Counted from the first letter of the stretch, positions 1 to 6,225 are shown. The stretch: 6,564 nt of DNA from Escherichia coli (GCF_003334385.1 NZ_QOWN01000076.1), one strand, 5' to 3'. The notes: generated by a model from the letters alone, not told the origin. Numbers and translations are program-made.

Positions 1-242
1 AACGCGAGGCATCGTCTTAACGAGGCACCGAGGCGTCGCATTCTTCAGATGGTTCAACCCTTAAGTTAGCGCTTATGGGACACACAGATTCATTTTGTCT
101 TTCTTCAGCAGCAAAATACACTGCGGTTATTATTTAACCATTAAATCAACAAAAAATTTTACCTCATATTGATTTGACTGCTATTTTTGCTATTAATAGC
201 CAGAATTGCAGTGCTTTTATATCTGTGTATAGTGAGGTTACT

Positions 243-1727
243 ATGTCATTCGGTCAGCCTTGTGATGAGTTTCCCCTGAGTTCGCTGCCTCCACTCATTC
301 GTGATGCCGTTATTGAAGCTCAGCAAATTACGCAGGCTCCCCTTGGGCTTGTGGCAGCGTCTGCCCTGGGCGCTGTTTCACTTGTCTGCCAGAATCTGAT
401 TGATGTCTGCAGACTGAATACACTGCGGGGGCCGGTCTCTCTTTTTTTCCTGACGCTTGCCGAGTCCGGAGAACGAAAAACCGCAGTGGACAAATTATTA
501 ATGAAGCCCCTGTACCAGCAGGAGATGCAGTTATATTCCAGATACAAAAGTGAACTGGCTGTCTGGAAAAACAAGGAAGAGCTTTTAAAGGCTCAGAAAA
601 AAGCATTGTTGTCAAAACTGAATAAAGAACTCCGCAAAGGCGCGGATGAGTCAGAAACCCTCAGACAACTGGAAGTACTTCAGAAAAACAGTGCGGAAGA
701 ACCTGTGAGGTATAAATTCATTTTTAATGATGCCACGACTGCGGCAATTAAGAATCAGCTTTGTGGTAAATGGCGTTCAGTTGGTATTATGTCAGATGAA
801 GCCGGTATTATATTTGATGGATATACCCTGTCTGAGTTGCCTTTTATTAACAAAATGTGGGATGGCTCTGTATTGTCTGTGGACAGAAAGAATGAACCCG
901 AACAGATGATTGAAAATGCCAGAATGACGTTATCCCTCATGGTGCAACCCGGTCTTTTTGACCGATATATGGAGCGAAAAGGTTCTGTTGCCAGGGACAG
1001 TGGTTTTCTTGCCCGTTGTCTTATCAGTAAACCTGCAACCACGCAGGGGAAACGCTTTATTAACGGAGCTGTGATTCCGGGAGGATCATTAACGGCATTT
1101 CATGAACGATTAATGGAACTGGCCAGAGGCAGTATTGAAAAATCCAGTGAGGATGAACGGTATTGTCTGCATTTTTCGCCTGAAGCGCAAAAAATATTTA
1201 TTGAGCACTATAATGTTCTGGAGCAGGATTTATCCCCTTCCGGACCCTTAAGCCCGTTTCGGGGACATGTTTCAAAAAAAACAGAAAACATTGCAAGAAT
1301 TGCAGCGTTATTTCAGTATTTCAGCTATGGTGAAGGGAAAATCTCTGCCGATATCATGACGTCTGCTGTCGTAATAAGTTCGTGGTACACAGATGAATAT
1401 AAAAAATTATTTGCGTTACCTGATGAATCTGAACTGCAGCAGAAGGACGCCGAGGAGCTGTTCGACTGGCTCATTGAGGAGTGCCGCGGAGAATGCCCGC
1501 CCCGTGTCAGGAAAAATTATATTCTCCAGTGTGGCCCGGGCCGGTTCAGAAACAGGAAAAAACTGAACGCATTGCTGAACATTCTTGAATCTCAGTTCAG
1601 GCTTTCTGTCGTGCCGGAAGGAAAAACCATGTATGTTCTGCTTCCCCAGATAGCCAGTTTAAAGTTGTCTGATGTCTCTGGTATTTTTACCTCGGGTTAT
1701 CACTACAATAAGCTGAGAGCGAAGTAA
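243..1727 (+). CDS. DUF3987-domain protein, YfjI-like (family associated with replication/primase modules of integrative elements and satellites)
   Basis: Long ORF 174..1727 in the track. TTG at 174 has no Shine-Dalgarno; ATG at 243 is preceded by GAGG (234..237) with a 5-nt spacer, so 243 is the preferred start (494 aa). The N-terminus reads EFPLSSLPPLIRDAVIEAQQITQAPLGLVAASALGAVSL, which matches my recollection of the DUF3987 N-terminal signature (F-P-x-x-x-L-P-x-x-L-R-D ... Q-x-P ... small-residue helix). No overlapping ORF is comparably long. Family assignment is from memory, not a search. Confidence 0.7.
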   Translation: MSFGQPCDEFPLSSLPPLIRDAVIEAQQITQAPLGLVAASALGAVSLVCQNLIDVCRLNTLRGPVSLFFLTLAESGERKTAVDKLLMKPLYQQEMQLYSRYKSELAVWKNKEELLKAQKKALLSKLNKELRKGADESETLRQLEVLQKNSAEEPVRYKFIFNDATTAAIKNQLCGKWRSVGIMSDEAGIIFDGYTLSELPFINKMWDGSVLSVDRKNEPEQMIENARMTLSLMVQPGLFDRYMERKGSVARDSGFLARCLISKPATTQGKRFINGAVIPGGSLTAFHERLMELARGSIEKSSEDERYCLHFSPEAQKIFIEHYNVLEQDLSPSGPLSPFRGHVSKKTENIARIAALFQYFSYGEGKISADIMTSAVVISSWYTDEYKKLFALPDESELQQKDAEELFDWLIEECRGECPPRVRKNYILQCGPGRFRNRKKLNALLNILESQFRLSVVPEGKTMYVLLPQIASLKLSDVSGIFTSGYHYNKLRAK

Positions 1728-3431: not shown

Positions 3432-4155
3432 CTGATGCGTAAAATCAGCAGTGACACGCCAGCTCCCCCTGTGCCCATTCCTGTATAAGACATGAACTGA
3501 GCGTATTAATGCTCCTGCTCTGAGACTGAGCCGGTGAGTGAGGGGCTGAGAAATCCCTCTTGACACAGCTCTAAACCAGAAATACTTCCCCGGTTGTTGC
3601 GGTGCGTCCGGATCCCCGATAACGGAACACTAAGGCTGTATTGCGGGACACCGGGTAAGTGGCAGCCTGTAATGTGTTCTGTCAACGCCAGAAAAAATGA
3701 TTTTTCACACGCGTTATAGACTCACTCCTGTGGACCTGGAAGCCCGTAACTCTGCGGTTGCCCACCGACTGACGGAACTGACCGCAAACTTTACGATCGT
3801 GTTCCTGCTTCCTTCTGGTCACCTGAACTTTTAGCCAGCGCTACGATAAGTCCGGTGTTATCTGCACCGGAGGACCGGGAACATTAAGCGGTATAGCGAC
3901 AACAAAGAATTCGAAATCAAAAGGGAATGGTGCCGGAGGCGTGGGCGGTAATAGGCTGATTTTCAGGTATTACCGGCTTACAACGTGTGGTTGATATTGA
4001 GGGGCTGTGAGTTTCGCGTATTTGTCAGAAACCCAGATGAGTTTTCCTTTATGGGACGAAATAAGGCAGCGGCAATACCTGGAAAAATTTAATATGGTAT
4101 GAAGGAGAACCTGTCGGTTACGCTTAATATACACGGTACACTGTCAGCTCAGGGG

Positions 4156-4165
4156 ATACATGAAC
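4156..4165. repeat. Additional direct copy of the 10-mer ATACATGAAC (same as 3421..3430), just downstream of the zinc-ribbon gene stop
   Basis: Exact 10-mer match read from the sequence. A related 8-mer ACATGAAC is at 3490..3497. Chance recurrence of a given 10-mer in 6.5 kb is unlikely but not negligible. Confidence 0.5.
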
Positions 4166-4172
4166 CGTTATC

Positions 4173-4373
4173 TCACCAGCTACACAGTATACACACACTG
4201 ACGCTGACAGTAGTCAGCAGGACCACAATAATCAGCGCCAGCAGTATGGTAACGATACGGTCTGTATTCCGGTAGTAGCCGAAGGGGTCGACAGAACCAC
4301 AATACGGGCAACACACTGTATTATGAGTAATCGCGTTTCCACAGTCCCTGCACTTCTTTTTGCGTATCACCAT
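4173..4373 (-). CDS. Small zinc-ribbon protein with C-terminal transmembrane helix (66 aa)
   Basis: ORF 4173..4376 on the minus strand. The preferred start is the ATG at 4371..4373 (complement), with GAGGAGGGAG immediately upstream (AGGAGG about 5 nt before the ATG). The protein has two CxxC-type pairs (CRDCG ... CCPYCG) followed by a hydrophobic stretch IVTILLALIIVVLLTTVSVSVCILC. It is divergent from the YagK-like gene across a 200-bp AT-rich intergenic region. Confidence 0.5.
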   Translation of the reverse strand: MVIRKKKCRDCGNAITHNTVCCPYCGSVDPFGYYRNTDRIVTILLALIIVVLLTTVSVSVCILCSW

Positions 4374-4545
4374 CACTCCCTCCTCACAGCCTTACCCGTA
4401 ACCGATTTTTTACATTAAAAAAACAACGCTGAAAATTCAACCGTCAGTCCGGAGACGACCGTTCGGGTTATCACAGAGTGCCTGAGACAGTGTCCTGCCG
4501 GAGGTCACCTCAGGGGCTCTGCGCATTTTTTACGACGTGGTTATT

Positions 4546-4562
4546 CCGTATGAACCATACGG
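4546..4562. promoter_or_regulatory. 17-bp perfect palindrome CCGTATGAACCATACGG overlapping the Shine-Dalgarno of the YagK/YfjJ-like gene
   Basis: Read directly: 4546..4552 (CCGTATG) and 4556..4562 (CATACGG) are reverse complements with a 3-nt centre. The right arm overlaps GGAG (4561..4564), which is the SD for the ATG at 4573. It could be a dimeric-regulator site or an RNA hairpin occluding the RBS. Confidence 0.4.
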
Positions 4563-4572
4563 AGATTTAACC

Positions 4573-5142
4573 ATGACCTACAAATACAACCCCTTCTGGC
4601 AGCAACGTATTCGTGAGACGGTGCGGCACGCACTGAATGTTCATCCCCGCCTGACGGCATTGCGGGTTGACCTGCGTCTCCCGGATGTACCGGCAGCAAC
4701 GGACGCAGCTGTGATATCCCGCTTCATCAATGCCCTGAAAGCCCGAATCGACGCTTACCAGAAACGTAAGCATCGGGAAGGTAAACGCGTGCATCCCACA
4801 ACCCTGCATTACGTCTGGGCCCGGGAGTTTGGGGAGTGCAAAGGTAAAAAACACTATCACCTGATGCTGCTGGTCAACCGGGATACCTGGTGTCGTGCCG
4901 GTGATTACCGCGCTCCGGAGTCTCTGGCCGGGATGATTAAACAGGCGTGGTGCAGTGCCCTGGGAGTGGATGTCGGGTGCCATGCCACGCTGGTGCATTT
5001 TCCGGCCTGGCCGGCGGTGTGGCTGGCGCGTAATGATGACACCGGCTTTCAGCAAGTGCTGGAACGTGCTGACTATCTGGCGAAGGAGCATACCAAAGCT
5101 CACTGCACCGGTGAGCGCAATTTTGGCTGTAGCCGGAGTTGA
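4573..5142 (+). CDS. YagK/YfjJ-family (inovirus Gp2-like) protein with HUH-like and YxxK-like motifs, 189 aa
   Basis: ORF 4537..5142 begins with GTG; the ATG at 4573 has GGAG (4561..4564) 8 nt upstream, so 4573 is preferred. The N-terminus YKYNPFWQQRIRETVRHALNVHPRLTALRVDLRLP matches my recollection of the YagK/YfjJ family. HYH followed by LMLLVN (HYH at 4852..4860) is an HUH-type motif, and YLAK lies near the C-terminus. The long antisense ORF 4567..5436 is rejected as GC-driven. Confidence 0.7.
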   Translation: MTYKYNPFWQQRIRETVRHALNVHPRLTALRVDLRLPDVPAATDAAVISRFINALKARIDAYQKRKHREGKRVHPTTLHYVWAREFGECKGKKHYHLMLLVNRDTWCRAGDYRAPESLAGMIKQAWCSALGVDVGCHATLVHFPAWPAVWLARNDDTGFQQVLERADYLAKEHTKAHCTGERNFGCSRS

Positions 5143-5395: not shown

Positions 5396-5803
5396 ATGAC
5401 TATGTACGCAAAATCCTTTATCGCTCTTGATGGCAACGGACGTCTGACGGGCGCCCGTACTGCACAGGCCGCACCTTATGCTAACTACACCTGCCACTTG
5501 TGTGGCAGTGCACTCAGATACCATCCGCAATACGAAACTGAACTTCCCTGGTTTGAACACACTGACGACAGGCTGACAGAGCACGGTCAACAGTGCCCTT
5601 ATGTCAGGCCGGAGCGCAGAGAAATACAGTTGATTAAACGTCTGCAGCAATTCGTACCGGATGCCTTACCCGTGGTGCGTAAAGCCAGCTGGCACTGCAG
5701 ACAATGTCACCACGATTATTATGGGGAGCAGTACTGCACACACTGCCAGACCGGAGGATTCAGTATTCCCCGGACAACTCAGGAGGAAATATGCGAATTC
5801 TGA
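5396..5803 (+). CDS. Cys-rich putative zinc-binding protein, paralog A (135 aa), unrecognised family
   Basis: ORF 5396..5803. GAGG (5389..5392) precedes the ATG at 5396 by 3 nt and the ATG at 5402 by 9 nt, so the start is one of the two. It contains CHLCG ... PWFEH ... W-H-C-R-Q-C-H-H-D-Y-Y-G-E-Q-Y-C-T-H-C-Q-T-G, and aligns along its length with the downstream protein. Confidence 0.6.
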   Translation: MTMYAKSFIALDGNGRLTGARTAQAAPYANYTCHLCGSALRYHPQYETELPWFEHTDDRLTEHGQQCPYVRPERREIQLIKRLQQFVPDALPVVRKASWHCRQCHHDYYGEQYCTHCQTGGFSIPRTTQEEICEF

Positions 5804-6225
5804 ACTGTTATATGGCGAATGACAGCAAAGGCCATTTTGTTACGGCGAAAGAAGCTGCGAAGCACAACCGACAGGACGTTTTGTGCTGTGTGTCCTGTGG
5901 ATGCCCGTTAACACTTCAGCGGGGCAATGACGGACAACCACCGTGGTTTGAACATGACCAGATGACTGTCGCTGAAAAAATCCTGCTGCGATGTACCTGG
6001 CTTGACCCGGCAGAGAAAGAGGCCCGTCGTTTGCATCTGCAGGGCATGACGGTTCCGGATTATACGGTGAAGGTGAGAAAGTGGTTTTGTGTGATGTGTG
6101 ACGAAGATTATGAGGGGGAAAAGTGCTGCCCACGCTGCGGTACCGGGGTATACAGCAGGGCGTGGGGGCGGCAGGAGGTGCCGTCGGAAGATGCCAGGGC
6201 TGATAATCCGTTACAGAGGCTGTAA
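5791..6225 (+). CDS. Cys-rich putative zinc-binding protein, paralog B (144 aa), translationally coupled to paralog A
   Basis: The ATG at 5791 has a strong AGGAGG (5781..5786) 4 nt upstream and overlaps the last 13 nt of paralog A (stop 5801..5803). The ORF-track start at 5704 is an unsupported extension. It contains CCVSCGC ... PPWFEH ... W-F-C-V-M-C-D-E-D-Y-E-G-E-K-C-C-P-R-C-G-T-G. Confidence 0.6.
   Translation: MRILNCYMANDSKGHFVTAKEAAKHNRQDVLCCVSCGCPLTLQRGNDGQPPWFEHDQMTVAEKILLRCTWLDPAEKEARRLHLQGMTVPDYTVKVRKWFCVMCDEDYEGEKCCPRCGTGVYSRAWGRQEVPSEDARADNPLQRL

Follow-up and report, generated by a model that had tools for sequence, protein, structure and literature searches.

A conserved orphan gene of Escherichia coli islands encodes a predicted tail-anchored zinc-ribbon protein

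What does a very small predicted membrane protein do when its gene stands back to back with a YagK-like gene in an Escherichia coli island, and is that gene real? We addressed this question in a window of 6,564 nucleotides (GCF_003334385.1, NZ_QOWN01000076.1), by which we mean the whole stretch of DNA that was analysed and to which coordinates refer unless another locus is named. The ORF at 4173..4373 on the minus strand (ATG at 4371-4373, TGA at 4173-4175; taken from the sequence and the ORF list) encodes the 66-aa protein MVIRKKKCRDCGNAITHNTVCCPYCGSVDPFGYYRNTDRIVTILLALIIVVLLTTVSVSVCILCSW. In RefSeq this CDS is WP_001297219.1, 'hypothetical protein', and it is 100% identical in E. coli O145:H28 RM12761. 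The gene is very common in E. coli and often multicopy, yet it has neither a name, nor a family, nor a literature.

An initial annotation, made from the DNA sequence, had described a Cys4 ribbon joined to a C-terminal hydrophobic helix in a 66-aa protein, and the analysis bore this out. The cysteines are arranged as C8-x2-C11-x10-C22-x2-C25, with an additional Cys21, and the distance between the two CxxC knuckles falls within the ~9-17 residues of ribbons of the PF13248/PF13240 type. Across the six reading frames, the window contains just two further CxxC-x10-CxxC motifs (three in total), both in the downstream DUF7828/Zn_ribbon_11 genes. C8, C22 and C25 are invariant among intact alleles and C11 is at least 90% conserved; the Cys4 ribbon is predicted to bind zinc. 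The TM helix spans residues 40-58, or up to residue 63, with a 19-residue Kyte-Doolittle mean of 2.99 and a Hessa sum of -4.2 kcal/mol, and the AlphaFold2 model, built on a 14-sequence alignment, contains a helix at residues 35-65 (pLDDT ~88-92). The ribbon head was modeled at low confidence (pLDDT 57-64), with short beta bridges. Between 0 and 8 residues follow the predicted 19-residue TM core, or 3 if the helix extends to residue 63. The head carries 7 K+R versus 3 D+E (net charge +4), and the basic RNTDR adjoins the helix. The protein thus has a single TM segment within ~30 residues of its C terminus, a polar, basic N terminus and no signal peptide, and we consider a tail-anchored zinc-ribbon architecture very probable. 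An N-in/C-out topology is predicted from the positive-inside rule and from the suitability of the reducing cytoplasm for a Cys4 site.

Searches of Pfam, NCBIfam, PADLOC and PDB sequences yielded no significant match. The best of the sub-threshold Pfam ribbon families was zf-ChsH2 (E 0.014), with PF13248 at E 0.092; the sole match in PADLOC-DB 2.0 was Cas12f (E 0.25, over the ribbon), and an Rfam scan of the whole window returned nothing at E<=1. Matches to PHROG were weak, the best being PHROG 38187 (E 2e-5), of unknown function. Literature searches by accession, peptide string and neighbor-family names returned nothing functional, in keeping with the initial description of such proteins as poorly characterised.

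We then compared eight independent alleles, namely those of the window and of loci L005, L019, L016, L017, L020, L006 and L003. Ribbon codons 2-39 of the six well-kept alleles had pairwise omega values of 0.01-0.29 (most 0.01-0.19) at dS values from 0.33 to >2, and the pooled pN/pS of these codons was 0.15 in the annotated frame versus 0.27-3.3 in the five others. Variable ribbon sites were distributed 8/6/27 over codon positions 1/2/3. Synonymous sites of the ribbon are near saturation: pooled pS in the six alleles was 0.47, above all 152 of the 38-codon windows of yagK (mean 0.24, maximum 0.39), which indicates that the alleles are old. The TM segment, with an omega of 0.45-1.2 in the well-kept alleles, was under a different kind of constraint. 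Its mean Kyte-Doolittle value was 2.6-2.9 versus 0.6-1.3 expected by random substitution (P<=0.004), and it contained 0-1 strongly polar residues where 3.8-5.3 were expected. The identity of the TM residues is therefore free but their hydrophobicity is maintained: selection keeps a membrane helix and no particular one.

We have little doubt that this is a genuine gene, on which purifying selection acts in the annotated frame alone. It goes beyond a chance ORF because it is annotated in RefSeq, conserved in diverged alleles and constrained solely in this frame. A non-functional, fortuitous or decaying ORF would be in line with the frameshifted and truncated variants that are common in databases, with the lack of the gene in K-12 and with the lack of detectable relatives beyond Escherichia and a few close enterics. 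We find this explanation scarcely credible in view of the frame-specific purifying selection at near-saturated synonymous divergence, the hydrophobicity held against drift and the presence of an annotated CDS under the match in 54 of 60 genome records sampled evenly down the ranking. We also considered and rejected a 58-aa ORF on the plus strand (4099..4275) that overlaps the gene; reverse-frame pN/pS in the ribbon block ranged from 0.27, in a frame with three stops, to 3.3, and the remainder of this ORF lies in DNA that is non-homologous between alleles.

Of 5426 complete E. coli genomes, 3473 (~64%) contained DNA similar to the ORF, almost always on the chromosome, at a median of two places per genome and up to six (up to eight with a longer query). 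Many E. coli strains carry the window segment on their chromosomes with 100% identity, and the exact protein is encoded on at least 1000 contigs, where its only database names are 'hypothetical protein', 'zinc-ribbon domain-containing protein' and 'predicted nucleic acid-binding Zn ribbon protein'. Among 50,697 phage records the gene was absent, the lone exception being a partial match of 20 residues at one terminus of a 4.5-kb record, and it was essentially absent from plasmids, for which there were eight matches, several of them to megabase-sized records that are probably misfiled chromosomes. When 1.84 billion representatives were searched with an HMM, no more than 25 matches fell below 1e-10, all of them close variants. 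Among the GTDB species representatives (100,044 species, one genome each), peptide- and DNA-pattern scans found no real copy: the peptide scan gave 34 chance-level matches, none of which was confirmed, and the DNA scan gave one chance match and one contaminant contig. The latter (L015; NZ_WACP01000054.1, Paenibacillus tengchongensis) is 683 bp long with 0.59x coverage and is 89% identical to window positions 4257-4928; it is almost certainly an enterobacterial contamination of the Paenibacillus assembly. The family is confined to E. coli/Shigella, with sporadic copies in Salmonella and Klebsiella. In K-12 there is no copy beside yfjJ or yagK, which probably explains why the gene stayed unnamed, and since K-12 yagK and yfjJ manage without it, YagK-type proteins do not need the small gene.

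Comparison of the alleles further revealed a mosaic structure. Codons 1-39 (4257..4373, minus strand), which specify the zinc-ribbon head and the juxtamembrane DPFGYYRNTDR, remain alignable to the window in diverged genomes, unlike the rest of the ORF. The C-terminal TM anchor (codons 40-63; 4185..4256, minus strand) exists as three cassettes that differ from one another at 24-36 of 72 nucleotides: type A in the window, type B in L016, L017 and L020, and type C in L005, L019, L006 and L003. The cassettes track the otherwise unalignable downstream DNA (mean p 0.49) and not the ribbon or the intergenic region. This, together with the alignability of codons 1-39 only, indicates that recombination joins different anchors to one head at about codon 39. 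The first 28 nt of the ORF are invariant in six of the eight alleles, and L006 and L003 have four scattered changes there. Divergence rises on both sides of a conserved core, from an intergenic p of 0.12 to a ribbon pS of ~0.5 on one side and, on the other, to a yagK pS of 0.14 at the 5′ end and 0.35 at the 3′ end. The constraint pattern and the cassette exchange, as read from the alleles, appear to be the behavior of an anchor and not that of a sequence-specific pore. In its outer half the helix has a partly conserved T-x3-VS pattern, which could mean that it also makes specific contacts.

The translation signals and the integrity of the gene varied with cassette type. The Shine-Dalgarno (SD) sequence GAGGAGGGAG (4376..4385, minus strand; read as the reverse complement) has an AGGAGG core at 4379..4384, separated from the ATG by a 5-nt spacer, and is as near to consensus as had been claimed. 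It is kept in type A and type B alleles, while type C alleles have a weaker one (GCGAGGGAG). In type C alleles ATC replaces the ATG (L005 7151-7153, L019 2267-2269 and L004 7115-7117); the codon after the ATC is GTG in L005 and L004 and GTT in L019. Despite the ATC start and the weaker SD, the comparison of L005 with L019 shows continued constraint on the ribbon (omega 0.08). The ATC alleles either have been tuned to weak translation or begin from a non-canonical start. Decay is visible in some copies: L004 carries a frameshift, Cys25 is missing from L003, and L006 and L003 both have a Pro within the helix, at an omega of ~0.6. Such copies fit a product that is dispensable or dose sensitive. 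We note that a 140-aa E. coli protein, P0129, named 'autotransporter domain-containing protein' in the database, consists of the first ~64 residues of the small protein followed by an autotransporter beta-domain fragment; it is evidently the result of a rearrangement or deletion that joined the gene to Ag43-like DNA.

The initial annotation had put a membrane-disrupting or toxin-like activity foremost and had named a sensor tether as a further option. A small membrane toxin or abortive-infection effector would insert and oligomerise through its helix and depolarise or permeabilise the inner membrane, with the ribbon as a trigger or regulatory head. The small single-TM product, its near-consensus SD and an island whose cargo abounds in defence and toxin-antitoxin genes speak for such a role, and the ATC start and weaker SD of type C alleles, whose ribbon is constrained, might result from selection to keep dosage low. 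An antisense RNA could also arise from a promoter-like site on the plus strand within the ORF (4204-4232, 10/12), but this non-conserved site falls in the variable TM part, and the two sites of this kind compare with 1.2 expected by chance. The helix is the least conserved part of the protein and is exchanged as a cassette, while the ribbon is near-invariant; there was no PADLOC match, no Rfam antisense or toxin-mRNA family and no adjoining antitoxin-like gene of the kind typical of toxin-antitoxin pairs; and up to 6-8 copies occur in a genome. The toxin idea is thus weakened by a helix that is least constrained and by the lack of a visible antitoxin or antisense partner, and sustained by the ATC alleles and the strong SD, and we hold it to be unlikely. 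Of the three options originally listed, a tether fits the conservation pattern best.

Characterised small membrane proteins of E. coli most often act by docking on larger membrane proteins, and we also considered that this one, like MgrB, AcrZ or MgtS, might modulate a larger inner-membrane protein of the host, on which its helix would dock and whose cytoplasmic side its ribbon would adjust. Apart from matching this commonest mode, a modulator could account for L44, L47, L52, V58, S59 and the Thr/Ser-rich outer half, which are common to all three cassettes. A specific helix-helix interface, however, normally constrains TM identity more than an omega of 0.5-1.2, and the strict linkage to the YagK module described below points to a role internal to the island. 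We rate a modulator as quite unlikely.

The genetic context of the small gene was highly uniform. The gene at 4573..5142 (plus strand) encodes a 189-aa protein of the YagK/YfjJ family ('inovirus Gp2 family', Rep-like), with matches to PF11726 (E 4.8e-48) and PF23343 REP_ORF2-G2P (E 3.3e-5). It is followed on the same strand by a first DUF7828 + Zn_ribbon_11 gene at 5396..5803 (PF25165, E 5.5e-31; PF11682, E 8.6e-9) and by a second gene of this type at 5791..6225, an ORF with an inferred start at MRILNCY..., whose equivalents in related loci are DUF7828/Zn_ribbon_11 genes and are called 'putative zinc ribbon protein' in RefSeq. In all eight diverged alleles, Salmonella included, the small gene lies 174-203 bp from a divergent PF11726 gene that is followed by two DUF7828 genes. 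The island location and the divergence from a YagK-like cluster proposed at the outset therefore hold in every allele examined, and the check proposed with them, conservation beside YagK/YfjJ-like clusters, came out clearly positive in related elements. On the opposite flank are an Hha-family gene or its remnant, a gene for a 68-aa AlpA-family HTH protein and an unknown gene of 190-200 aa, and farther out a YfjI-family gene, a GTPase gene (YeeP-like) and Ag43. Such an arrangement is well known as the backbone of the tRNA-associated islands, for pathogenicity and fitness, of E. coli and Shigella.

Several features of the neighboring genes were noted in passing. The YagK-like protein, which the literature names only as an annotation label, contains an HUH-like motif, H94-Y95-H96 (4852..4860, plus strand), within GKKHYHLMLLVN; together with the weak REP_ORF2-G2P match, this would fit a rolling-circle Rep or a relaxase-type nuclease. 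The DUF7828 + Zn_ribbon_11 pair (5396..6225, plus strand) are tandem, slightly overlapping paralogues. The small protein's CCPYC knuckle is echoed, at a non-significant level of similarity, in the C-terminal ribbons of both (CRQCHHDYYGEQYCTHC and CVMCDEDYEGEKCCPRC). A 45-aa ORF at 3697..3834 on the plus strand (WP_001418354.1, hypothetical) occupies the site of the Hha/YmoA-family gene of diverged islands. Its residues 3-31 align weakly with positions 29-57 of the Hha profile NF008191 (E 0.0014), and a degraded member of the Hha family is its probable identity. The YfjI-family (DUF3987-type) ORF at 174..1727 (plus strand; 517 aa, TTG start) is intact in the window and is annotated as frameshifted in the otherwise identical RM12761 island.

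Between the small gene and yagK lies a divergent intergenic region of 199 bp (4374..4572). The initial annotation had given it as a shared AT-rich region of about 200 bp; the length is right, but the region is not AT-rich overall, as its GC content of 0.49 compares with 0.50 for the window and only the 41-bp patch 4400..4440 is AT-rich (GC 0.24). The intergenic region is unusually conserved, with a mean pairwise difference between alleles of 0.12 versus a pS of 0.22 for yagK and 0.50 for the ribbon, and hence beyond the synonymous sites of both flanking genes. Promoter-like hexamers are found within the AT-rich patch. A scan identified a site directed toward yagK (plus strand; TTTACA at 4409-4414 and GAAAAT at 4431-4436), and a weak site (7/12) directed toward the small gene was found by eye on the minus strand (TTGAAT, the reverse complement of 4435-4440; 17-nt spacer; TAATGT, the reverse complement of 4412-4417). 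The plus-strand -10 element (4431-4436) overlaps the minus-strand -35 element (4435-4440), and there is a converse overlap at 4409-4417. Overlap of the -10 and -35 elements of opposed candidate promoters suggests that the two would be mutually exclusive.

For the putative yagK leader (4443..4590, plus strand), the predicted folding energy is -54.2 kcal/mol (z -4.5). Positions 4474-4521 would form a long hairpin that, with the T6 run downstream of it at 4526-4531, resembles a terminator or attenuator, and a second predicted hairpin (4536-4575) buries the yagK SD (4561-4564) and ATG. Allele indels fall in loops, and a compensatory change was seen in only 3 of 42 pairs. By analogy, AlpA-type antitermination at this leader is conceivable but weak, and we keep it as a lead; the link is weak because the local AlpA-like protein has only 68 aa. 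In the Pseudomonas aeruginosa AlpA, residues up to H142 were tested, so that it has >140 residues, and its fold resembles that of Q of phage 21 (PMC9371919).

Taken together, these data led us to propose the following model. The product would be a C-tail-anchored inner-membrane protein whose Lys/Arg-rich ribbon of ~39 residues sits in the cytoplasm at the membrane surface, held there by a single generic TM helix, with at most a few residues reaching the periplasm. The working part would be the ribbon and the juxtamembrane DPFGYYRNTDR; the ribbon would bind a partner, either protein or nucleic acid, and thereby localise or sequester it at the membrane. The process served might be the replication, mobilisation or regulatory module of the island itself, which would be the most likely source of a partner given the constant pairing of the small gene with a YagK/YfjJ Rep-like gene and two zinc-ribbon genes through a conserved control region. 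We tentatively favor a tether or adaptor that acts through the ribbon, at rather less than an even chance, and that the partner belongs to the YagK module is a conjecture that we think rather improbable. Still more speculative is a wider proposal: that the protein would be the founding, well-sampled example of a class of tail-anchored zinc-ribbon adaptors (CxxC...CxxC-x-S-x-DPFG-basic-TM) with which mobile elements hold a Rep/relaxase-type DNA-processing module or its regulator at the inner membrane, that expression of the small gene would be set by divergent promoters that overlap, exclude each other and serve the Rep-like gene as well, and that the small gene would be one arm of a switch by which most E. 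coli control the replication or mobilisation of their islands. Taken as a whole, we would put this at long odds.

Distant look-alikes speak for the tether model and also raise a further alternative. These are small proteins of the same layout, with E values of 1e-4 to 1e-6 and ~30% identity, several of which share CxxC...CxxC-x-S-x-DPFG-x2-R followed by a TM helix. When 12 of these look-alikes were aligned with the query and two of its close alleles, 4 of the 15 sequences reached PF13248 and 3 reached PF13240 at E<=0.001, and the query reached neither. Five look-alikes had an informative context: three were in conjugative or integrative elements, one was chromosomal and one was in another E. 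coli island; the contig of a sixth, P0116, is 1.2 kb and too short for context. P0099, P0117 and P0125 lie within conjugative or ICE transfer regions, whose genes include those for NikA, DotM and an exclusion protein; TraG, a topoisomerase and CcdAB; and SNF2 with AcaB. This raises an entry- or superinfection-exclusion factor, or a DNA-transfer accessory of a mobilisable island, whose target at the inner membrane would be DNA on its way in or out, or else the machinery of transfer, and the Rep/relaxase-like neighbor (PF23343) points the same way. The look-alikes are only weakly related, however, others of them occur in unrelated chromosomal contexts, and T4SS or coupling-protein genes were absent near the gene in the examined loci; we judge a role in exclusion or transfer to be very unlikely.

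The result is modest: a real, conserved orphan gene and a reasoned, proposed mechanism, ordinary in kind. It nevertheless offers a clean and testable case, a small membrane protein in which constraint falls on a tiny, predicted-cytoplasmic zinc ribbon and not on the helix. If the ribbon tethers a Rep-like module or a regulator, the gene would be a way into the island's control of replication, excision or mobilisation; if it is instead a toxin or exclusion factor, a widespread accessory function would be added to E. coli islands.

How, then, does the protein compare with known systems? C-tail-anchored inner-membrane proteins of E. coli include DjlC, Flk and ElaB/YqjD. The protein resembles them in its N-terminal domain, here predicted to be cytoplasmic, in its single TM segment at the extreme C terminus and in the absence of a signal peptide, but it is unrelated in sequence and its head is a 39-residue zinc ribbon. 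A lone C-terminal TM segment without a signal peptide would imply post-translational insertion, a route described for small E. coli membrane proteins such as YohP (PMC7549839). With the type I toxins (Hok, TisB, Ldr, DinQ, ZorO) the protein shares a small single-TM product, a strong ribosome-binding site and, often, a place in mobile DNA. Those toxins are essentially a conserved helix under the control of an antisense RNA, whereas here the ribbon is conserved (omega 0.01-0.29) and the helix variable (0.45-1.2), so that the helix is not the conserved part. No lysis genes (endolysin, spanin) that might accompany a holin or lysis protein were present in any examined locus.

The closest analogy for the proposed mode of action is with the ZAS anti-sigma factors (RsiW, ChrR), which combine a cytoplasmic zinc head, a one-TM tether and sequestration of a cytoplasmic partner. 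The protein is not a member of this group, as it lacks HxxxCxxC, an extracytoplasmic sensor domain and an adjacent ECF sigma gene; the module contains no sigma factor gene, and fecI of RM12761, ~12 kb away, is unrelated. The nearest likeness in layout is to the generic ribbon-plus-TM proteins of Zn_ribbon_3 (PF13248), Zn_Ribbon_1 (PF13240) and PHROG 38187/10292, whose functions are unknown and which have an N-terminal pair of knuckles, basic residues and one TM segment, a subset of them also having DPFG-x2-R. It differs from them in falling below every Pfam ribbon threshold, in forming a tight family of its own in E. coli and near relatives, and in ending directly after the helix, whereas the PHROG 38187/10292 profiles have 136-144 positions. 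The protein belongs to a broad, uncharacterised class of small zinc-ribbon membrane proteins, of which it is a narrowly distributed newcomer.
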